Assembly: GCA_963754315.1 (NCBI GenBank)
Contig: CAVWFS010000018.1
Span: 650,047 to 714,046 of the forward strand
Reading direction: 5' to 3'
DNA: 64,000 nucleotides
Origin: an uncultured Candidatus Rokubacteria bacterium
GTDB lineage: Bacteria; Methylomirabilota; Methylomirabilia; Rokubacteriales; CSP1-6
The position numbers and the translations under genes were made by a program. Shown one piece after another: positions 2,058 to 25,685 of this stretch. The notes beneath the pieces are model-generated. The model saw nothing but the letters and a program-made list of their open reading frames with translations. It was not told the origin of the DNA and made no database searches. Within the stretch, counting starts at the first letter, position 1; every line of letters begins with the position of its first letter.

Positions 2058-5000
2058 GCTTTCTGTCCCCGCTGGCCTTCGCCCTCATCGGCCTCACCCT
2101 GCCCCTCGTCCTTCTGTACTTTCTGAAGGTCCGACGGCGAGAGCGGCAGGTTCCCAGCCTGCTCTTGTGGGACGCCGTCAAGCGTGACCGGGAGGCCTCC
2201 GCCTTCTTCCAGCGCCTGCAGCGCGACCCCCTCATAATTTTGCAAATTCTTGCCCTGATCGCGCTGGCCACGGCGCTGGCCCGGCCGACCATCACCGTCA
2301 CCGGTCACGGCGCCCGCAAGGTAGTGGTGGTGCTCGACCCGTCGGCGTCCATGCAGACGCGCGACATTCCCCCCTCGCGTTTCGCCCAGGCCAAGGCAGA
2401 GGCCGCTGCTCTCGTGAGCCGTCTCGGCGAAGGCGCCGAGGTCATGGTGATCGAAGCGGGGGTGCAGCCAAAGGTGGTGGCGGCGCTCTCACGAGAGCGC
2501 GAGCGGGCGTTAGGGGCCATCAGCGCCGCCCAGGCCAAGGACATGCCTAACCGGGTCGGCGAGGCAGTGCGCACGGCGCGTGCCCTGGTGGCCAACGATC
2601 CCGCGGCTGAGATCTACGTCTTCACCGACGGGGTAGGTCCCCTGGCGGAGGAGCGCGATCTCAAGGACACCCGCATTCGCTGGGTCGGGGTGGGGCGGGG
2701 CGGACGCAACGTGGCCATCACCAACCTGGCCGTGCGAAAGAACTACTACGGAGCCTTCGACTACCAGGCCTTCGTCTCGCTGGTGAACTACACACCCGAG
2801 ACGCAAGAATTTACCTTCTCGCTCGACATCGACGACAAGCCCATTGCCGAGAAGTCGGTGACCTTGGAGCCGAGCGTGCGTCGGTCGGTGGTCCTTCCCT
2901 TCAGCCACACGGGAGGGGGCACGGTGGCTGCCCGCCTGCGCATCAACGACGATCTGCCCGTCGACAACGTGGCCTATGCCGTGCTCCCGCCGGCGAAGAA
3001 GATCCAGGTTCTGCTCGTGAGCGGCGGGAACCTCTTCCTCGAGAAGGCCCTCAAGACCGACCCCCAGGTGGAACTCGAGACGCGGAGTGTGGATCAGTAC
3101 GAAGGAGGGATGGCGGGGGCGGACGTGGTCGTGCTCGACTCGGTCAACGTGCCGCGCGTGGGGCCCGGCCGCTTCGTGTTCGTCAACACCGTGCCGGGCG
3201 ACGTTCCCCTCGAGGTGATGGGGCGCCTTGAGCGCCCGGCCATCATGGACTGGGATCGAAACCACCTGATCATGCGGTATGTCGACTTCGCCAAAGTGGT
3301 GGTCGAGGATGCCATGCGCATCAGACCGCTGGCGGCCGGGCGGCCTCTCGTGGAAGCGATCGGCGGTCCTCTCATCTACGCCATCGAGGAGCAGGACCGG
3401 AAGGCGATCTTCGTGGGGTTCGACCTCTTCAAAACGGACTTGCCCTTGCGGGTGGCGTTTCCTCTCATCTTGTCCAACGGCCTTCGCTGGCTCCATCCGT
3501 CGGGCGCCGATCAGGCAAGCTTCCAGCTTGCCGCGGGACGGCCGATCTTGCTCCCGGTGCCGCATGGGGTGGCCACGGCCACCGTGACCACTCCTAGCGG
3601 GCGCAGCGTCAAGGCGCCAGTGACGCGGGGCGTGGTCAGTTTTAGCGAGACCGAGGAAGTCGGGACCTACACCCTGGCCACTGCAAAGGGTGAAACGAAG
3701 CTCGCCGTCACCCTGATGGACGCCGACGAATCGAACGTGACTCCGCGCGCCTTGCCAGCTTCGGCACCTCCGGGCGCGGTCCCGACCCCCTCCGTGCCTG
3801 TTCAGCGTGAATTGTGGCCGCTCTTCGTCCTCCTCGCGGTCGTGCTGCTCCTGTTGGAGGGCCTCCTCTACTGGCGTCGGCAGAGCGCCGGCCGGTTCCG
3901 GCCCCCCGTCAATTCGGGGGATCGGTGGGCGCTGGCCCTGCGGGGCGCTCTCGTGCTGGTCCTGGCGTTGACGTTCCTGCGCCCCAACCTGCCGCGTTGG
4001 GTGGATCGACTGAATGTGGTCTTCCTGCTCGATGTGTCAGACAGCGTAAGCCTGGCCGCTCGCGAGCGCGCCTACCGGTTTGCTTCCGAATCGACCAAGT
4101 ATGTCAAGGGCGGTGATCGCAACAGCGTGATCGTGTTCGGCGAGGAGGCGGTCGTTGATCAGCCCCTCGCGCATCGAGCCACTCTCGAGAGGCCCAGGGC
4201 GGCAGTGGGTGGTCGAGGCACAGACCTCTTCCAGGCAATCCAGCTTGCCCAGGCCGCGCTCCCGCCCGGGCAGGCCAACCGCATCGTGCTTTTGACGGAC
4301 GGCCGCCAGAACGCCGGGAACGCCTTGGCGGCGGCTCAGGCGGTCAAAGATGCCGGGGTCGACCTGTACTACGTGAGAGCCCCACTCACGTTCACGCAAG
4401 AAGTCGTGGCCGAGTCCATGGTGCTGCCGCAAGAAGTCAAGTACGGGGAGCCCTTCCAGGCCAAGGTGGTGGCGTGGAGCTACAAGGACACGCAGGGGCG
4501 CGTTTCTCTCTTTCGTAACGGAGAGTTTCTCGGCTCTCAGGTCGTCCGCCTGACCGCCGGCAAGAACGTGTTCAGCTATCGGCAGTCCCTCGACCAGAGC
4601 GGCATCCACGTCTATCAGGCTGCCGTCGAGGTGGATGGTGACACCATCGAGGACAACAACCGCGCGGTAGGAACGGTCGTCGTGCGCGGCCGGCCCCAGG
4701 TCCTCCTCGCCGAGAAAGACAAAACCCACGCCGCATCCCTGGTGGGTGCCTTGCGATCCCAGAACATCGAGGTGACCGTGGTCGAGCCGTCTGGGATTCC
4801 CAAGGACATTGCCGGCCTGCAAAAGTACGACGGGGTCATCCTCTCCAACGTCTCTTCGCTCAAGCTCGGTCGTGACCAGATGGTGAGCATCCGCGATTAC
4901 GTCCGCGACCACGGCGGCGGTCTGATGATGATCGGGGGTGAGGAGAGCTTTGGTCTGGGCGGCTATTACCGCACGCCCGTGGAGGAAGCCCTTCCCGTCA

Positions 5001-6440: not shown

Positions 6441-7793
6441 ATGATTTGGCACCGTCGACGGCCCTCACCGTGGGTAGTCCTGGGTATCCTGACCGGCTTG
6501 GTCCTATTCGTGAGTGCGGCGAGCGGGGCGGCCAAGCCGCGAATCGTGGTCATCGTGCCGTTCAATACGGAGACGATCGATCGTGACAAGCAGTGGATGG
6601 GAGAGGGCGTCGCCCAGGTTCTGGCCCTCGGGCTGACCCAGCATCCGGCAACGGTCGTCGTGGAGAGCGCCCGCCTGCGCTCCTTCGCCAAACCGGAGGG
6701 TTGGACCGAGAGCAGCGTCGTCCAGGCGACACGAGGGATCAAGGCCGACGCCGCGCTCTTCGGCCAGATCGTCCGCAAGGGCCCTGATTTCGTGATCCAG
6801 CCCCGCCTGCTCGAGATGAAGGCGAGCGGCCCCGACGTGGTGAGTCTCGAGCCCATCACCAGCTCCGAGCCCGAGTTCCTGAGCCGCATCTCGGCCCTCC
6901 CCGTGACGTATGTGCGGACGATGAAGGTCGCCCTCAGCGAGGCGGAGATGGCGCGGATGGACCGAGCGTCTCGCCCGACGCAGTCGCTGCGCGCTTTCGA
7001 ACTGTTCGCCCGCGGCGCCATGGCCGTCCAACGCGGTGGTCAGGACGGTAACGAAGCCGCGGTGGAGATGTTCACCAAAGCCATCGAGGCGGACCCCACC
7101 TTCGCGGTGGGGCAATACACTCTCGGTACGGTTCACCAGGCGCTCAACAATCGCTGGAAGGCCACCGCTCAGTTCCGGGCCGCCGCTCAGCTTGATCCCG
7201 CGTATCCGGAGCCCATGAAAGCATTGGGTGACCTGTTTCTGGTGGCTCCCCGTCGGCTCTTCGACCAGGCGGTCGAGGCCTACACCAAGGCCATCGACCT
7301 GCGCCCGTTTTACGCGGACGCCCACGTGGGGCTCGGCGACGCACGAGCCGCAAAGGGCGAGGTGGACGGCGCTATTAGCGCCTACCAGAAGGCCCTGGTC
7401 TTCAATCCTGCTAATCCCAGGGTCTACATGAGTCTCGGCAAGATCTACTACAGCGAAAAGGGCCTGTACTACGAGTCAGTCACCGCCTACAAGAAGGCCA
7501 TCGAGCTGGATGCCCAGTCCGTCGAGGCGCGCATGGGACTGGGTGAGGTCTACGAAGACAAAGGACTCTATCGCGAGGCAGTCGACGAGTACAAGAAGGT
7601 GATCGAGCTGGAGGCCAAGCATACGGGGGCCCTCTACAACCTCGCCCTCGTCTACGAGAAGGTCGATCCGAAGGAAGCGATCGTGCAGTGGGAAAAGTAC
7701 ATCGCGCTGGCCTCGCAACTCCCCTCCGAGAAGGACTGGGTGGACGTGGCCCGACAGCACCTCCGGAAGCTCAAGAGCCAGGTGAAGGAGTAG
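6441..7793 (+). CDS. TPR-repeat protein with N-terminal signal peptide/TM (BatC-like partner of the vWA protein).
   Basis: Consecutive TPR units (AYTKAIDLRPFYADAHVGLGDA...AYQKALVFNPANPRVYMSLGKIY...AYKKAIELDAQSVEARMGLGEVY...). Hydrophobic N-terminus. Confidence 0.75.
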   Translation: MIWHRRRPSPWVVLGILTGLVLFVSAASGAAKPRIVVIVPFNTETIDRDKQWMGEGVAQVLALGLTQHPATVVVESARLRSFAKPEGWTESSVVQATRGIKADAALFGQIVRKGPDFVIQPRLLEMKASGPDVVSLEPITSSEPEFLSRISALPVTYVRTMKVALSEAEMARMDRASRPTQSLRAFELFARGAMAVQRGGQDGNEAAVEMFTKAIEADPTFAVGQYTLGTVHQALNNRWKATAQFRAAAQLDPAYPEPMKALGDLFLVAPRRLFDQAVEAYTKAIDLRPFYADAHVGLGDARAAKGEVDGAISAYQKALVFNPANPRVYMSLGKIYYSEKGLYYESVTAYKKAIELDAQSVEARMGLGEVYEDKGLYREAVDEYKKVIELEAKHTGALYNLALVYEKVDPKEAIVQWEKYIALASQLPSEKDWVDVARQHLRKLKSQVKE

Positions 7794-18485: not shown

Positions 18486-19055
18486 ATGAACCGGGAAACG
18501 GCGTGGGCGATTCTGACCGAATTCACCCAGGGCGATAGCCTCCGAAAGCACGCTCGGGCCGTGGAGGCCTCCATGCGCGCGTACGCGGTCCGCTTCGGAG
18601 AGGATCCCGAGGTGTGGGGCACCGCCGGGATCTTGCACGACTTCGACTACGAGATGCATCCACTTGCCCCGGCCCACCCACTGAAAGGGGCCGAGATCCT
18701 GCTCGCCCGCGGTGTCTCCGACCCTGTCATTCGCGCCATCGTTGCCCACGCTGACTACGCTGGCATGCCGCGGGTGACGTTGCTCGACCGAGCGCTTTAC
18801 GCTTGCGACGAGCCCACGGGTTTCATCCATGCCTGCGCCCTCGTCCGGCCGGGTCGCGTCATCAGTGGCATGCCCGCTTCGTCGGTGCGCAAGAAGCTCA
18901 AGGACAAGGGGTTTGCACGCACGGTGAACCGCGACGATGTGTATCGGGGCGCGGTCGAGTTGGGCATCGAACTCGACGAGCACTGCGACTTCATCGTGGC
19001 GGCCCTGAGCGAGATCGCCCCCGAAATCGGTTTGCGCCAATCTTCCGAAACCTAG
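18486..19055 (+). CDS. HD-domain phosphohydrolase.
   Basis: Spaced H...HD...D metal-binding residues (GILHDFDYEMH, AHADYAG). Family level only. Confidence 0.65.
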   Translation: MNRETAWAILTEFTQGDSLRKHARAVEASMRAYAVRFGEDPEVWGTAGILHDFDYEMHPLAPAHPLKGAEILLARGVSDPVIRAIVAHADYAGMPRVTLLDRALYACDEPTGFIHACALVRPGRVISGMPASSVRKKLKDKGFARTVNRDDVYRGAVELGIELDEHCDFIVAALSEIAPEIGLRQSSET

Positions 19056-19116
19056 CCGGTTCGACTCCGGCTCTCGGGGGCCTGTCAAAACTCCGCTGCA
19101 AGCCGCGATAAGGTCT

Positions 19117-19350
19117 CGAGGGCGTCCTGAGCGAGGTGGGGTTTGGGGGGGGGCCCGCCATTTCGGGGCCTACGAGAGCGAGCGCAGGACCGAGGGGCGC
19201 CCCGGGTAACCCGGGGCGTCCTGAGCGAAGGGGGGTTTGGGGGGCCATTTCGGGGCCCCCACGAGCGAGCGCAGGACCGAGGGGCGCCCCGGGTAACCCG
19301 GGGCGTCCTGAGCGAAGGGGGGTTTGGGGGGCCATTTCGGGGCCCCCCAA
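19117..19350. repeat. about 2.6 tandem copies of an ~87-bp GC-rich element carrying nested palindromes/hairpins (REP-like or MITE-like).
   Basis: Unit GGGGCGTCCTGAGCGAAGGGGGGTTTGGGGGGCCATTTCGGGGCCCCCACGAGCGAGCGCAGGACCGAGGGGCGCCCCGGGTAACCC is repeated directly. Contains GGGGCGCCCC, CCCGGG-TAA-CCCGGG and GGGGGGCC-ATTTC-GGGGCCCCC. Confidence 0.85.
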
Positions 19351-19358
19351 TAAAACAA

Positions 19359-20540
19359 TTGCCCATCGTTCACGTCGACATGGACGCCTTCTACGCGGCT
19401 GTCGAGCAACGCGACAGGCCCGAGCTACGCGGTCGCCCCGTCATCGTGGGCGCCAACCCCCGTGGACGGGGAGTGGTGTCAGCAGCTTCTTACGAGGCGC
19501 GGCCGTTTGGCGTTCGCTCGGCAATGCCCATCGGCCAGGCGGCGCGACTGTGCCCCGAGGCGGTGTTTCTGCCCGTCGACATGCCACGCTACCAGCGGGT
19601 CTCCACCCAGATCATGGAGCTCCTCGCGACCTTCTCGCCTCTCGTGGAGCAGATCTCGGTGGACGAGGCGTTCTTGGATCTTACCGGTACCGAGTCGCTG
19701 TTCGGCGACCCGGTCGATGCCGTGCGGCGAATCAAGACGATGATCCACGCCGAGACGGGACTGACCGCGTCGGCGGGGCTGGCGTCGAACAAGTTCGTGG
19801 CAAAGGTCGCCTCCGATCTCGGGAAGCCTGATGGCCTTGTCGTGGTCCCATCAGGCGAGGAATCCGCGTTCCTGGCTCCACTTCCGGTCGAGCGGCTGTG
19901 GGGGGTGGGACGCGTCATGGCGAAGGAACTGCAGGCGCTCGGGATCCGCACCATCGGCCACCTGCAGGCGCTGCCGCGCCGCGTGCTTGCCCGACGGTTC
20001 GGTCAACATGGTGATCACCTGTTCGAACTCGCTCGGGGACGCGACCGACGGCCGGTGGAGCCGGACGTGACGGCAAAGTCCATTGGAGCCGAGGAGACCT
20101 TTGCGCGCGACTGCCGGGATCCGGGGCGACTCCTGCTCGTTCTCCGCGCTCACGCCGAGCGAGTAGCCGCGGAGGTCCGGCGCCAGAATCTCGCCGCTGC
20201 CTGCGTCGCGGTGAAGGTTCGCTTCGCCGACTTCAGCACCGTGACGCGACGCTCCAGTGGGGACCCGACCCAGGACGGCCTCGAACTGTATCGGCGGGCG
20301 ACGATTCTCCTGCGCCGCGTCTCGTCGTCCCAGCCCGTAAGACTGATCGGTCTCTCTGTGTCGCAGCTGACAGCCGCGGGGCGAGGGCAGCTTCCCCTGC
20401 TTGACGGTGCTGCCCTCCGGCGAGAGCGGTTGGCGCGGGCGGTCGACGGGCTGACGCAACGGTTTGGTCTCGACACTGTGCGGCCCGCCTCGCTGTTAGA
20501 ACGGCGCGAGGACGACTCGCGGCCTCGCCGTTCGACCTGA
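19359..20540 (+). CDS. dinB: DNA polymerase IV (Y-family translesion polymerase). Start is uncertain: TTG at about 19359 or ATG at 19380.
   Basis: IVHVDMDAFYAAVEQRDRPELRGRPVIVG, SIDEAFLDLTG, palm/fingers motifs. The ORF-track N-terminal extension (19143) runs through the repeat array and is rejected. Confidence 0.85.
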   Translation: MPIVHVDMDAFYAAVEQRDRPELRGRPVIVGANPRGRGVVSAASYEARPFGVRSAMPIGQAARLCPEAVFLPVDMPRYQRVSTQIMELLATFSPLVEQISVDEAFLDLTGTESLFGDPVDAVRRIKTMIHAETGLTASAGLASNKFVAKVASDLGKPDGLVVVPSGEESAFLAPLPVERLWGVGRVMAKELQALGIRTIGHLQALPRRVLARRFGQHGDHLFELARGRDRRPVEPDVTAKSIGAEETFARDCRDPGRLLLVLRAHAERVAAEVRRQNLAAACVAVKVRFADFSTVTRRSSGDPTQDGLELYRRATILLRRVSSSQPVRLIGLSVSQLTAAGRGQLPLLDGAALRRERLARAVDGLTQRFGLDTVRPASLLERREDDSRPRRST

Positions 20541-20548
20541 TCCGCAAG

Positions 20549-21373
20549 TTGCCTCGTCGCGAGACTTCGAATACACTGACTGAACAGCGGTTCAGTCTGG
20601 CCGGAGGTGCCTCTCGAATGGATCGGCCGATCTCCTATGACAAGCTCGCGCGCGAGGACCGATTCGTCAGGATGCGTGCCAGGGATGTGGCCGCCCTGAA
20701 AGTCGAGCAGGGACTTCCGCCTTTCCCCGACCTGGCTAGCCGCCCGTCCATGTGCGAGCGGGTGCACGGTATCTTCGTGGGCGAGTTGCAGGCAATGGAG
20801 GGCGCCGGGCGTACGGTCTACGACTTCCCGGACGCGCCCTGGGAGTTCACCATGGACATGGCGCGACAAGTGTGGGATGAATCGCGCCACGTTGAGATCT
20901 ACCTCGGTCTCCTCGACCACCTGGATGGCTACGTGGGCGAGTTTCCAGAGACGACCATCCTGTGGCGCTGCGCCTGCGCCGAGGACGCCGCAGCGCGCGT
21001 GGCGGGTGTCAACCGCGGACTCGAGGGGCTCGCTTGTGACGTCTTCAACCAACTCATTCACATCGCGGGCAAGATCGGCGATCCGATCATCGAGAAGTCG
21101 GTGGACTATGTGCTGGCCGATGAGATCACCCATGTGCGCATGGGATCGAAGTGGCTCAACAAGCTGACCGAGGGCAATCCGGAGCGGCGCCAGCGCGCTA
21201 TTGAATTCCAGGAGTCGATCGACGATCGCTTCAATCTGGGCGGGGTGCGCCAGGACGGACAGCACGAACAAGTCCAGATTTCCATCGCCAAGGACGCCCG
21301 CCGACTAGCCGGATTCACCGACGAGGAAATCGAGCGTCTGATCAAGAGCACACAGCGTTCGCCCGTCTATTGA
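20549..21373 (+). CDS. ferritin-like diiron-fold protein (DUF455-like). Function unknown.
   Basis: Two E-x-x-H motifs spaced as in diiron four-helix bundles: DESRHVEIY and DEITHVRMG. Start may be the internal MDRPISY. Confidence 0.45.
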   Translation: MPRRETSNTLTEQRFSLAGGASRMDRPISYDKLAREDRFVRMRARDVAALKVEQGLPPFPDLASRPSMCERVHGIFVGELQAMEGAGRTVYDFPDAPWEFTMDMARQVWDESRHVEIYLGLLDHLDGYVGEFPETTILWRCACAEDAAARVAGVNRGLEGLACDVFNQLIHIAGKIGDPIIEKSVDYVLADEITHVRMGSKWLNKLTEGNPERRQRAIEFQESIDDRFNLGGVRQDGQHEQVQISIAKDARRLAGFTDEEIERLIKSTQRSPVY

Positions 21374-22335
21374 TGGACGGTCATCGCCTCGCCGGCGACC
21401 TGTCGGTCGACGCCTCGGCCCGCCTGATCCGCCACTACCGCTACGTCGAGGAGCGGATGATGCGTGTGATGGGCGGCTGGATCGCTCTCACCCCCGAACT
21501 GCCTGCCAAGCTCTTGCTCGGTCGTCACGTGTGGGATTGCGCCCAGCATGCCGACCTGTGGGGGCGTCGCCTTCCCGAGTTGCGCACAGCCACGCAGCAG
21601 TCGGAACCGGCTAACGAGGCGGTCGTCCGCTTCATGGATACTCTGGAGGCCGAGGAGGGTTACGCCGAAACGCCAGAGCGCCTGGCCGGGATCTACCGTG
21701 TGCTCAAACCCCACCTGCTGTCGGTGTACATCAACCACCGTGCCCGGGCCAATCCCGTGTTCGAGCCACCCACGCGGCGAATCCTTGATCGCTGTGTGGA
21801 CGAGGAGTCTCGGCACGCCGCTGCTGGCCAGATCGTGCTGGAGGCCTTGACCCGTGAGCCGGATCCCCGCCGGCGAGCCGAGGCTTGGGAGGAGCAGCTT
21901 CAGCGAGCCCTGCAGGAGGCAGGGGGGATCACCGGTAACACCCCCGTTCAGCCGGGTGCGAGGATCACCCACCCCCGCGCCTACGATGACGTGATCTCCC
22001 TCGGCCGGGTTTTGGCCAGGCCGGACCTGCCCGTTGAGCTGAAGCGTGAGCTCGACCGCCATCGGCGCGCCGTCGAAGCCGGCGACCTCGCGTCGCTGGC
22101 GGCGCAGGTCTTCGAGGCCGAATGGGAACACGTGCAGACCGAGTATGGGAGGCTGTCCGTTCCGCTCACGGCCTCCGAGGTCGTCGCCGTCGCAAAGATC
22201 GGCGCCTATCGAATGGTCAAGCTGGCCTTCAAAGGTCCACGTGGCCTCGCCGTCGTCCAACAGCAGTGGCGACAGGCCGACGACGCCTGGCGGCTCTACA
22301 GCGCGGAAGTGGTACGTATCGAACCTGCCGCCTGA
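21373..22335 (+). CDS. hypothetical protein with ferritin-like N-terminal region (DEESRHAAAG) and an uncharacterised C-terminal domain. Translationally coupled to the upstream ferritin-like gene.
   Basis: TGATG overlap with the upstream gene. Single E-x-x-RH motif. No other recognisable family. Confidence 0.4.
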   Translation: MDGHRLAGDLSVDASARLIRHYRYVEERMMRVMGGWIALTPELPAKLLLGRHVWDCAQHADLWGRRLPELRTATQQSEPANEAVVRFMDTLEAEEGYAETPERLAGIYRVLKPHLLSVYINHRARANPVFEPPTRRILDRCVDEESRHAAAGQIVLEALTREPDPRRRAEAWEEQLQRALQEAGGITGNTPVQPGARITHPRAYDDVISLGRVLARPDLPVELKRELDRHRRAVEAGDLASLAAQVFEAEWEHVQTEYGRLSVPLTASEVVAVAKIGAYRMVKLAFKGPRGLAVVQQQWRQADDAWRLYSAEVVRIEPAA

Positions 22336-22374
22336 CCCGGTGATTTTCCCTTGAAAGCCTGGTGCGGTTCCCAT

Positions 22375-22557
22375 GAGCCCCCAGCATCTCCCGTTGGCGC
22401 CCTCGGGCCCCGAGGCGTTCGAGCGTCGGGTGGGGCGGCATGGGGGGGCCCGTTCGAGGCCCCAGCATCTGGCGTGGGATCGAGGGGCGCCCCGGGTTGC
22501 CCGGGGCGTGCCGAGCGTTGGGGGGGCATGGGGGGCCCGTTCGAGGCCCCCCATCTA
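22375..22557. repeat. about 2 tandem copies of a ~90-95-bp GC-rich hairpin element homologous to the 19117-19350 repeat.
   Basis: GGGGCGCCCCGGGTTGCCCGGGGCGTGCCGAGCGTTGGGGGGGCATGGGGGGCCCGTTCGAGGCCCCCC is roughly 80% identical to the unit at 19.2 kb. An upstream partial copy is ...CATGGGGGGGCCCGTTCGAGGCCCC. Confidence 0.8.
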
Positions 22558-23904
22558 ATGTTCAAGACCGTCCTCGTCGCTAACAGGGGCGAGATCGCCC
22601 GTCGCGTCTTTCGCGCGTGCCGGCGCCTCGGGGTCCGGACGGTAGCCGTCTTTTCGGAGGCTGACGCCGACTCGCTTCACGTCCGGGAGGCCGATTCAGC
22701 TGTGCTCATTGGGCCTCCTCCCGCCCGCCAGAGCTATCTGGCCATCGACAGGATCATCGCGGCGGCCCATCGAACCGGTGCCGATGCCGTGCATCCTGGT
22801 TATGGATTCCTCTCGGAGAACTGGCAGTTTGCGGACGCGTGCGTACGCGCGGGCTTGGCTTTCGTAGGGCCGTCGCCGGATGCCATCCGCGCCATGGGCG
22901 ACAAAACAGAGGCACGCCGGATCATGAGGGCGGCAGGCCTGCCCATCGTGCCCGGCAGTCCGGGACCTGCCGGCGATCAGGGCGAGGTCGCGCGGATTGC
23001 TACGGAGGTCGGCTATCCGGTGATCCTCAAGGCTGCGGGTGGGGGCGGTGGTATCGGTATGGCCCGGGTGAACAAAGGATCCGAGCTGGCCTCCGCTTAC
23101 GCCACCGCGGCGCGACGAGCCCAGGCGGCGTTCGGCACGGACACGCTCTATGTCGAGCGCTATCTCGAGCGGCCGCGTCACGTCGAAGTTCAGGTGTTCG
23201 GGGACAGCCATGGAGCACTCCTACACCTGCACGAGCGGGAGTGCTCGATCCAGCGCCGCCACCAGAAACTCGTTGAGGAATCGCCGGCCCCTGTGCTCGC
23301 GTCCCCCACACGCGCCGCGCTCGCTGCGGCCGCTGTGACGGGGGCTCGGACCATCGGGTATGAGAATGCGGGGACCGTGGAGTTCCTCGTCGACCAGGCC
23401 GGTCACTTCTATTTCCTCGAGATGAATACCCGGCTGCAGGTCGAGCATGCCGTTACCGAGGAAGTGACCGGCCTCGACCTCGTCGTCGAGCAGCTTCGGG
23501 TGGCGGCGGGTGAGCGCCTTAGCTGGTCGCCCGAGACTGTCGTCTCGCGCGGGTCGGCCATCGAGTGCAGGGTGTACGCTGAGGATCCCGACCGAGCGTT
23601 CCTTCCGTCGCCTGGAACGATCGGCCGTCTCGAGCTGCCGACCGGGAAGGGTGTACGGGTCGAGTCGGGAGTCGAAGTGGGCAGCACGGTGTCCGTCCAC
23701 TACGACCCTTTGTTGTTCAAGCTCATCGTCCATGGGGATTCCCGGGTGGAGGCCCTCGGACTGATGGAGGATGCTCTACATCGCTGCCTGGTCGACGGCG
23801 TCAAGACCAATCTGGCCTTCCTGCGGCGCGTGATAGCCTCGGAGGCGTTTCGCGTCGGACAGACTCATACGCAGATGGTCGAACAAGGAGCCTTCAATGC
23901 CTGA
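22558..23904 (+). CDS. accC: biotin carboxylase subunit (ATP-grasp), 449 aa.
   Basis: MFKTVLVANRGEIA..., ATP-grasp glycine-rich loop, FLEMNTRLQVEH, C-terminal BC domain. ATG at 22558 lies after the repeat array. Confidence 0.9.
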   Translation: MFKTVLVANRGEIARRVFRACRRLGVRTVAVFSEADADSLHVREADSAVLIGPPPARQSYLAIDRIIAAAHRTGADAVHPGYGFLSENWQFADACVRAGLAFVGPSPDAIRAMGDKTEARRIMRAAGLPIVPGSPGPAGDQGEVARIATEVGYPVILKAAGGGGGIGMARVNKGSELASAYATAARRAQAAFGTDTLYVERYLERPRHVEVQVFGDSHGALLHLHERECSIQRRHQKLVEESPAPVLASPTRAALAAAAVTGARTIGYENAGTVEFLVDQAGHFYFLEMNTRLQVEHAVTEEVTGLDLVVEQLRVAAGERLSWSPETVVSRGSAIECRVYAEDPDRAFLPSPGTIGRLELPTGKGVRVESGVEVGSTVSVHYDPLLFKLIVHGDSRVEALGLMEDALHRCLVDGVKTNLAFLRRVIASEAFRVGQTHTQMVEQGAFNA

Positions 23905-24112
23905 GGAGATCAAGGCGCATATCACGGGTGTCGTCTTTCAGATCACTGCCAAGCCCGGAGACTCCGTGGCCAGCGGCGATCCCGTGATTGTGCTGGAGTC
24001 CATGAAAATGGAAATCCCTGTAGAGGCGCCGCGCGCCGGCTCGGTCCTGGAGGTCTGTGTTCAGGAGGGGCAGACGGTTCAGGAGGGCGATACTGTTGCG
24101 CTTCTTGAGTGA
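23897..24112 (+). CDS. minimal biotin carboxyl carrier protein (71-aa biotinyl domain only).
   Basis: Biotinylation motif ESMKME inside a hybrid-barrel biotinyl/lipoyl domain. Overlaps the accC stop. Confidence 0.8.
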   Translation: MPEEIKAHITGVVFQITAKPGDSVASGDPVIVLESMKMEIPVEAPRAGSVLEVCVQEGQTVQEGDTVALLE

Positions 24113-24149
24113 TCTGATGCCGATCTAGAAGCTCCGGTCCTCCGGGCCA

Positions 24150-24190
24150 AGCACCCGGGGGGGTGGGGGCCCTTTCGGGGCCCCCATGAG
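24150..24190. repeat. single copy of the GC-rich hairpin module (same family as 19.2 kb and 22.4 kb repeats). Sits between convergent BCCP and rpoD ends and is a likely bidirectional terminator.
   Basis: GCACCCGGGGGGGTGGGGGCCCTTTCGGGGCCCCCATGAGGC. The GGGGGCC-CTTTC-GGGGCCCCC hairpin matches the repeat core. Confidence 0.6.
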
Positions 24191-24191
24191 G

Positions 24192-25685
<1,494 letters not shown>

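Follow-up and report, generated by a model that had tools for sequence, protein, structure and literature searches.

The 64-kb window analyzed here, a stretch of contig CAVWFS010000018.1 from an uncultured Candidatus Rokubacteria bacterium, contains three intergenic loci with copies of one structured element of ~79 nucleotides (nt), built from two modules: a hairpin (H1), and an unpaired run of G residues with a second hairpin (H2). Array A (19113-19352, + strand) is a tandem repeat with a period of 87 bp upstream of dinB, array B (22386-22556, + strand) is a tandem repeat of the same period upstream of accC, and locus C (24121-24190, + strand) is a decayed copy between the convergent ends of the gene for a biotin-carboxyl-carrier protein (BCCP; 23897-24112, + strand) and rpoD (24192-25685, − strand). 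Gene identities were taken from Pfam. The HD-domain gene that precedes array A has its stop at 19055, 58 nt before the array start at 19113, and array B lies between a gene for a 320-residue hypothetical protein (stop 22335) and accC. The starts of the two downstream genes, TTG at 19359 for dinB and ATG at 22558 for accC, were placed by their Pfam domains (IMS from residue 6 and Biotin_carb_N from residue 1, respectively); the last H2 hairpin ends 10 nt before the former and 5 nt before the latter. A covariance model built on an alignment of 108 copies, run over the window with filters off, matched at the sites of A, B and C alone and aligned the units of all three, as expected if the loci are related in the way that an earlier note on this DNA had suggested. 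Similarly, the core GGGGGCCNNTTCGRGGCCCC is matched five times across the window, without exception at these loci and on the + strand (0.05 expected), and the H1 palindrome GGGGCGCCCCGGGNNNCCCGGGGCG has three sites, each matched on both strands (6 matches, 0.03 expected).

Array A was described in the earlier note as about 2.6 copies of an 87-bp unit, and this count stands: Tandem Repeats Finder reports a period of 87 with 2.2 copies and 96% matches at 19157-19347, to which a truncated first unit, beginning near 19113-19119, has to be added. This first unit (19113-19171, + strand) is recognized by the covariance model at 19113-19163 (E = 0.04) and by nhmmer at 19119-19171 (model positions 27-72); its H1 stem-loop is deleted, with TCGAGG joined directly to GCGTCCTGAGCG, while the G-run and a degenerate H2 are kept. 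Two full-length copies follow on the + strand, the first at 19187-19265 (84.6 bits, E = 5e-14, model positions 1-79), with H1 at ~19194-19222 and H2 at 19239-19260 as located by palindrome and core matches, and the second at 19274-19352 (90.4 bits, E = 5e-15), with H1 at ~19281-19309 and H2 at 19326-19348, which folds into a 13-bp H1 and a 9-bp H2. Their unpaired G-runs occupy 19228-19233 and 19315-19320. Array B does consist of about two tandem copies, but its period is 87 rather than the 90-95 bp first proposed, as measured from core matches at 22444 and 22531, and its 5' unit is degenerate (22386-22469, + strand; E = 0.06, core match 22444-22463), with a variant H1, CCTCGG-GCC-CCGAGG, an H2 at 22442-22463 and 67% identity to the second unit. 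The latter (22477-22556, + strand; 76.3 bits, E = 2e-12) is a full copy with H1 at 22484-22512 and H2 at 22530-22552. The identity between the A and B units, put earlier at roughly 80%, is somewhat lower, at 74% gapped or 67% ungapped, although the relationship itself is sound. Locus C had been taken for a single core copy; a single H2-type hairpin is indeed found there (24165-24185; nhmmer match 24137-24187), but the whole of 24121-24190 aligns to the covariance model as a decayed full-length element (34.3 bits, E = 9e-5). Since 166 of 176 H2-type hairpins in the loci retrieved by pattern from metagenome-assembled genomes (MAGs) lie inside elements, the lone hairpin of locus C is best read as element-derived.

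The arrays are traversed, in frame with dinB and accC, by the open reading frames (ORFs) 19143-20540 and 22351-23904, and these fusions are spurious, as had been supposed: indels of 1 and 2 nt that distinguish strains inside the units are not multiples of three, so that the repeats are non-coding and a coding repeat or N-terminal extension is ruled out. Public ENA gene calls nevertheless start accC 5-10 codons too early, inside the hairpin (458 or 453 residues versus 448), which illustrates how the elements mislead gene callers. A CRISPR array, which the earlier note had discounted, is ruled out by the contiguity of the units, which have no spacers. A known RNA family is likewise ruled out: the window has no Rfam matches at gathering thresholds, and a permissive threshold yields matches in 18950-24350 at chance level alone (E ≥ 2). 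A phage origin was rejected, as viral contigs gave zero matches. No tRNA (searched with ARAGORN) or tmRNA was detected in the window.

The two hairpins of the unit, ~29 and ~27 nt in size, differ from each other. H1 has a 13-bp stem flanked 5' by a conserved CGA and 3' by a conserved GAGCG; in the window it takes the form GGGGCGCCCCGGG-TAA-CCCGGGGCGUCCU, with 13 pairs including two G·U, and its centre is the perfect palindrome CGCCCCGGG-TAA/TTG-CCCGGGGCG, a 9-bp inverted repeat. H2, of the general form xTGGGGGGCC-AUGUCGG-GGCCCCCCAx', is a 10-bp G/C hairpin, represented in the window by GGGGGGCC-AUUUCGG-GGCCCCCC. The palindromes are thus those already described from the sequence, and the fold check proposed with them gives a stable structure of two hairpins, with one unit folding at -52.4 kcal/mol on the + strand (z = -3.6) compared with -45.0 kcal/mol on the − strand. 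The element has a G+C content above 70%. The consensus of the 108 aligned copies is (a)TCGAGGAGCGCCACGGCTTCGCCGGGGCGCTCCGAGCGTTGGGGGGTnTGGGGGGCCATGTCGGGGCCCCCCAnnT; conservation drops to background ~8 nt upstream and ~4 nt downstream of it, and the unpaired motifs CGA, GAGCG and GGGGGG are near-invariant. Some variant copies, 100-121 nt long, carry a nested extra hairpin within the H1 loop (for example GGGTGCG-TCC-GCGCACCC); these lie in the retrieved loci L055 (6731-6851), L058 (4903-5022), L068 (5803-5902), L089 (5254-5353) and L097 (3909-4008).

That the element is a dispersed repeat family, as had been proposed, is decisively borne out by a scan of GTDB species-representative genomes with the strict composite pattern CCGGGGCGNNCNGAGCGN{8,25}GGGGCCN{3,9}GGCCCC, which returned at least 117 stretches in at least 37 MAG assemblies; the pattern being strict, both figures are minimum values, and the seed copies lean toward the consensus. 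Among the matches listed, the labels Candidatus Rokubacteria, Rokuibacteriota, Methylomirabilota or Methylomirabilia apply to 33 of the 37 assemblies, the other four (Acidobacteria, Candidatus Acidoferrum and two labelled 'uncultured bacterium') may represent mis-binned contigs, and up to 12 separate 8-kb blocks fall in one assembly. Contigs from the ENA assemblies ERZ25039531, ERZ25039555 and ERZ25039565 belong to the same species as the window. In 733 kb of the pattern-retrieved MAG loci, the covariance model finds 167 copies, so that, on top of the seeded arrays, about one more is found per ~20 kb, a density that applies to loci picked for containing a copy. Copies within a genome are 73.5% identical, compared with 74.3% between genomes and a permutation mean of 74.2 ± 0.8%; this equality gives no sign of genome-specific subfamilies or of recent bursts. 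Literature searches by taxon, repeat class and literal sequence found no description of the element, the main Rokubacteria genome paper makes no mention of repeats, and the element appears not to have been described before.

Both stems covary, their pairing being kept through compensatory changes. In the 108-sequence alignment, 94.4% of stem cells are paired, compared with 40-63% when the partners are slid by 1-3 columns, and 89 cells are changed on both sides, compared with 23.8 ± 3.5 in shuffled alignments, with none of 500 shuffles reaching 89. One H1 pair occurs as AU (63), GC (23) and CG (13) and another as CG (66) and GC (39), and copies found independently of the pattern include H1 stems that are wholly rewritten yet paired, such as GAGGCCGTCCGCGG-CTTCG-CCGCGGACGGTCC. 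The H2 stem reaches two pairs past its G/C runs, the outer pair occurring as GC (37), AT (33), TA (23) and CG (20) and being paired in 69.6% of cases versus 42.2 ± 3.6% after shuffling, and the G-run and C-run of H2 are equal in length (6/6 in 84 copies, 5/5 in 52). The structure is conserved, without assignment to one strand or to RNA as opposed to DNA. Strand-specific selection on RNA had been considered because of an excess of G·U over A·C (36:4 in pattern-selected copies), but was rejected as an ascertainment artefact, since the ratio in pattern-independent copies is 12:8. As a separate observation, the length of the unpaired G-run covaries with those of the H2 G-run and C-run (Spearman rho 0.52; 153 copies, L008-L124), the three lengths being 6/6/6 in 56 copies and 5/5/5 in 32; this may derive from alternative pairing or from subfamily history.

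The copies are found at the ends of genes. Gene predictions around the elements were made with our own heuristic codon log-likelihood finder, trained on the element loci, which matches public calls near the window. Of 158 arrays, 132 could be classified: 50 lie between co-directional genes that run with the element, 36 between co-directional genes that run against it, 41 between convergent and 5 between divergent genes. Compared with 806 background pairs of adjacent genes (600 co-directional, 106 convergent and 100 divergent), arrays are depleted from divergent regions (p = 0.0013) and enriched in convergent ones (p = 8e-8), and at least one gene 3' end adjoins 127 of the 132. Between co-directional genes, both orientations occur, with no significant bias (50 versus 36, p = 0.16). 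From the H2 end of the element, the median distance to the stop codon of an opposing gene is 3-4 nt, and the start of a gene on the same strand is ~15 nt away; the H1 end of the element falls ~16-19 nt past an upstream stop. TAG and TAA are enriched among the stop codons next to H2 (p = 4e-4), which is compatible with a weak preference for targets containing A/T or simply with the scarcity of A/T-rich spots in genomes of ~70% G+C. Single copies make up 126 of the 158 arrays, and the other 32 (~20%) consist of at least two copies on the same strand.

Sister strains and related species, fetched through exact-protein look-ups and compared over the flanking genes, show that the occupancy of these sites is dynamic. 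Relative to the window, which has three H2 hairpins in array A and two in array B, there are five and three in L002 (99.2% flank identity) and three and three in L004 (99.5%), while L003 (97.1%) has four in array A and has lost array B entirely, so that between strains the arrays range from 3 to 5 and from 0 to 3 whole units, respectively. Both arrays are present in L125 (85% flank identity) and both are absent in L126 (80%), where a 42-nt spacer occupies the site of array B; in L127 (78%) array B is absent (10-nt spacer) and a separate copy in the opposite orientation (3929-3974), independent of array A, lies in the spacer upstream of dinB. A second copy in L127 (9074-9153) adjoins an extra gene, of the DinB_2 family, that is inserted in the interval from the carrier-protein gene to rpoD. 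From these comparisons, elements are gained and lost at the species scale and copy number drifts at the strain scale. The missing array of ~220 bp upstream of accC in L003 (8630-8665, versus 22336-22557 in the window) is a deletion rather than an empty site, because the last H2 persists as its 3' half, with the junction at a CC microhomology (TGACC followed by GTTCGGGGCCCCCCATC). Each tandem unit takes in 8 nt of local spacer, from which it follows that the arrays expanded at their site after insertion, rather than through further insertions. In other loci, it is the H1 module alone that is repeated ahead of a single H2, with seven H1 modules in L115, five in L063, and further examples in L026 and L040.

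At locus C, a further type of change is seen. The 21-nt hairpin GGGGGCCCTTTCGGGGCCCCC (24165-24185) is exactly inverted to GGGGGCCCCGAAAGGGCCCCC in L002 (10269-10288, with the core on the − strand), as well as in the short contigs L006 and L007, and the downstream flank ATGAGGCTAATTCTC of the inverted hairpin is unchanged; of the three, flank identity to the window is given for L002 only, at the 99.2% noted above. The flip is of the kind made by template switching and suggests extrusion of the hairpin in vivo. L126 has a different but compensated hairpin at this position.

Two marks of transposition were looked for at the ends of the element. Among 138 single copies, no target-site duplication is seen at any offset for 3-mers or 4-mers, the best fractions of shared flanks (0.065 and 0.036, respectively) lying inside the range of shuffled controls, and inspection of the 108-sequence alignment reveals no terminal inverted repeats, the 5' end ATCGAGGAGCGCC being unlike the reverse complement of the 3' end TGACATGGGGGGCC. 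Exact insertion boundaries were not obtained, as the empty sites in L126 and L127 are too diverged (78-80% identity) for alignment at the level of single bases.

Taken together, loci A, B and C carry copies of an interspersed, structured repeat confined to the Rokubacteria (order Rokubacteriales, phylum Methylomirabilota), which probably behaves like the repetitive extragenic palindromic (REP) and BOX elements of other bacteria; a REP/BOX-like repeat that is new in architecture and host is the best-supported description. The element would spread non-autonomously, in a way that produces no target-site duplication, after which arrays would grow and shrink by replication slippage or unequal recombination and hairpins would be reshaped by template switching. 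Where co-transcribed, the stable hairpins could serve as generic barriers that protect against 3'-exonucleases, cause partial termination or decouple cistrons. In the gaps between the 9-10 G-C-pair hairpins and the coding sequences, at 19349-19361 for dinB and 22553-22560 for accC, no Shine-Dalgarno sequence is found, and since H2 sits at the Shine-Dalgarno position, the arrays probably dampen or insulate translation initiation of both genes. Liang, Rudd and Deutscher are said to have reported in 2015 that an E. coli REP within ~15 nt of a stop codon reduces translation of the upstream gene; by analogy, such a reduction is conceivable in this family, given the spacing of 0-5 nt.

Several observations weigh against this interpretation. 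Neither hairpin is followed by a U-tract in any copy, the 3' flank having the profile A-t-S-T… with no T-run, and a consensus scan detected neither a canonical intrinsic terminator nor a sigma-70 promoter at the elements. Because the U-tract is missing, the elements are not canonical intrinsic terminators, and the role as terminators considered in the earlier note is excluded for that type. All effects on RNA are inferred from sequence. Template-switch 'correction' of quasi-palindromes is an established mutational route, and could yield compensatory changes without selection. Mobility is deduced only from presence and absence between species, because no mobilizing enzyme or exact boundary was identified. 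Also significant is the equality of within-genome and between-genome identity, which gives no sign of recent bursts, and a consensus that is constant across the order is not obviously explained by a purely selfish element. Finally, the differences in copy number could in part be errors of metagenome assembly, which would apply especially to homopolymer lengths.

One alternative, which we consider doubtful, is a host-functional cis element selected at each site as a U-tract-independent or factor-dependent terminator, an RNA-processing site or an mRNA stabilizer, with a conserved Rokubacterial protein that would recognize the CGA…GAGCG bracket and the G-run. The strong covariation in H1 and H2, the near-invariance of the unpaired CGA, GAGCG and GGGGGG motifs, the same consensus in at least 37 assemblies with equal identity within and between genomes, the enrichment at convergent and depletion at divergent gene ends, and the different compensated hairpin at the locus C position in L126 would all be consistent with such a function. 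It is harder to reconcile with the occurrence of both orientations between co-directional genes, with the lack of G·U/A·C strand asymmetry in the pattern-independent copies, with sites that are empty or deleted in close relatives while the flanking genes are intact, with the drift of copy number among near-identical strains, and with the missing U-tract. A related proposal, which we put forward tentatively and regard as rather unlikely, is that the element forms the cis half of an order-wide partnership with a host or domesticated protein. Candidates for this partner would be a new HUH-type or other enzyme acting on single-stranded hairpins, or a termination or processing factor, which would read the CGA…GAGCG bracket (possibly a tandem G·A motif), the unpaired G-run and H2. 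Such a partnership would explain the constant consensus in at least 37 assemblies, the equal diversity within and between genomes and the covariation in length of the G-run and H2.

Mobilization of the REPIN/RAYT or IS200/IS605 type, in which the hairpins would be copied as single-stranded DNA by a vertically inherited, single-copy HUH tyrosine transposase (a REP-associated tyrosine transposase, RAYT, acting on paired REPs in the former case), appears unlikely. It would account for ends without terminal inverted repeats or target-site duplications, for the retention of hairpin shape over sequence in the H1 stem, for the order-wide persistence with equilibrium-like diversity, and for a genomic distribution like that reported for REPs (PMC3733652). 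However, the GTAG/CGTC tag of REPs is absent from the stem feet of the consensus, (a)TCGAGG…CCGAGCGtt…CCCCCCAnnT, CGTC being seen in minority variants alone (for example GAGCGTC and CACGTC), and the two hairpins are mutually unlike. The arrays are same-strand direct repeats rather than inverted pairs, and where neighbouring copies lie on opposite strands, kilobases with ordinary genes separate them. A crude motif screen of ~1 Mb of sampled element-containing loci found no RAYT-like ORF with HUH…Y-x-x-NP motifs. Genes bracketed by inverted copies were considered as well; they look like ordinary housekeeping genes by inspection, as judged from sequence without a family search.

It is very improbable that the element is a classical MITE (a transposable element of miniature size with inverted repeats), i.e. 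the deletion derivative of an insertion sequence with a DDE transposase. Its size of ~80 nt, copy number, intergenic location and stable fold would suit such an origin, and many transposases are present in Rokubacteria genomes (PMC5712423), but flanks share no 3- or 4-mers beyond shuffled controls at any offset and the consensus ends are not mutual inverted repeats; the MITE-like character offered in the earlier note is for these reasons not sustained. A leader specific to dinB or accC, whether riboswitch, attenuator, RNA thermometer or tandem operator for a dimeric repressor, would fit arrays that stop 5-10 nt before start codons and an H1 core that is a perfect 9-bp inverted repeat, but is largely refuted by the distribution of the family and hardly credible, as the element adjoins hundreds of unrelated genes in either orientation, the copy upstream of accC is absent in L003, L126 and L127 and that upstream of dinB in L126, and Rfam gives no match. 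Because the element flanks hundreds of unrelated genes and is missing at these sites in relatives, the arrays are not dedicated regulators of dinB and accC, and the window holds no special regulatory device for either gene.

As a REP/BOX-like repeat, the element can be compared with several known systems. REPs lie between co-directional and convergent ORFs, downstream of coding regions, and carry an unpaired GTAG/CGTC tag (PMC3733652). Like REPs and the bacterial interspersed mosaic elements (BIMEs) formed from them, the element is a high-copy, extragenic, G+C-rich and often clustered sequence of imperfect palindromes, is located between co-directional and convergent genes, has stems with compensatory changes and no target-site duplication, and likely acts as RNA hairpins at the 3' ends of transcripts. 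The REP/BIME-like character proposed in the earlier note is therefore retained for its behaviour, being extragenic, hairpin-forming, downstream of genes and rare between divergent ones, but the GTAG/CGTC tag and inverted dimers were not found, nor was a RAYT in the sampled loci. The element is further distinguished by its size and composition (~79 nt comprising two hairpins that differ and an unpaired G-run, whereas a REP is one palindrome of 20-40 nt), by clusters that are direct tandem arrays where REPs and REPINs form alternating or inverted pairs, and by a consensus common to a whole order where REPs are confined to a species or genus.

The BOX elements of Streptococcus pneumoniae, boxA-(boxB)n-boxC, have terminal inverted repeats and target-site duplications (PMC3049150), both of which are lacking here. 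The likeness lies in a modular composite of strain-variable length, in which one module is tandemly amplified to a variable extent, and in a predicted stable RNA structure, co-transcription with neighbouring genes and ORFs that run through the arrays (PMC3049150). In the present element, however, amplification affects the H1 module or else the entire H1+H2 unit, and the host belongs to another phylum, with a G+C content above 70% in the element compared with 39.5% in the pneumococcal genome (PMC3049150). No resemblance in sequence was seen, although no direct comparison with boxA, boxB or boxC was made.

Mycobacterial interspersed repetitive units (MIRUs) were reportedly described by Supply et al. 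in 1997 as intergenic direct repeats in tandem, with units of 40-100 bp, that lie inside gene clusters in the orientation of the genes and differ in number from strain to strain; they are proposed to contain short ORFs overlapping the stop and start codons of their neighbours. The MIRU variable-number tandem repeats (VNTRs) of Mycobacterium tuberculosis share with arrays A and B a variable number of intergenic direct tandem units in a gene cluster, oriented with the genes, and the 87-bp period is a multiple of three. The strain indels of the element do not come in multiples of three, a gap of 58 nt separates the upstream gene from array A, and the element is dominated by hairpins and occurs mostly as single copies (126 of 158 arrays), unlike MIRUs. 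MITEs such as the Correia elements of Neisseria and RUP of pneumococcus are also short, abundant, structured, non-coding and insertion-polymorphic, and can occupy gene ends, but differ by terminal inverted repeats and target-site duplications, neither of which was seen here, and by a parent insertion sequence, none being identified for the present element.

Rokubacteria, uncultured bacteria that abound in soil and groundwater, have large genomes, with a reported non-coding share of 8-17% (PMC5712423). If the one extra array per ~20 kb is roughly extrapolated, the family may total a few hundred copies per genome, and with this estimate it would constitute a substantial and uncharacterized share of the non-coding DNA of the group. 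Very stable hairpins placed against stop and start codons probably shape the expression of operons. As variable-number tandem repeats, the arrays could be used for strain typing, and the elements may act as breakpoints in short-read assembly. The family also offers a clean test case, in that a repeat consensus is held constant across a bacterial order without terminal repeats or target duplications.

Two further features of the window were noted. Directly 3' of the TAG stop of the HD-domain gene that precedes array A, positions 19053-19086 read GCCGGTTCGACTCCGGC, a stem-loop that carries the T-arm consensus of tRNAs (GGTTCGAnTCC), with an acceptor-like TCTCGGG after it. This stretch is kept in L002-L004 and absent in L125, and could be the remnant of a tRNA 3' end, for example from an old integration site. 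At 7257-7619, direct repeats with a period of 102 nt and 69-73% identity lie inside an apparent coding region; these are probably repeats of protein sequence and unrelated to the two-hairpin element.

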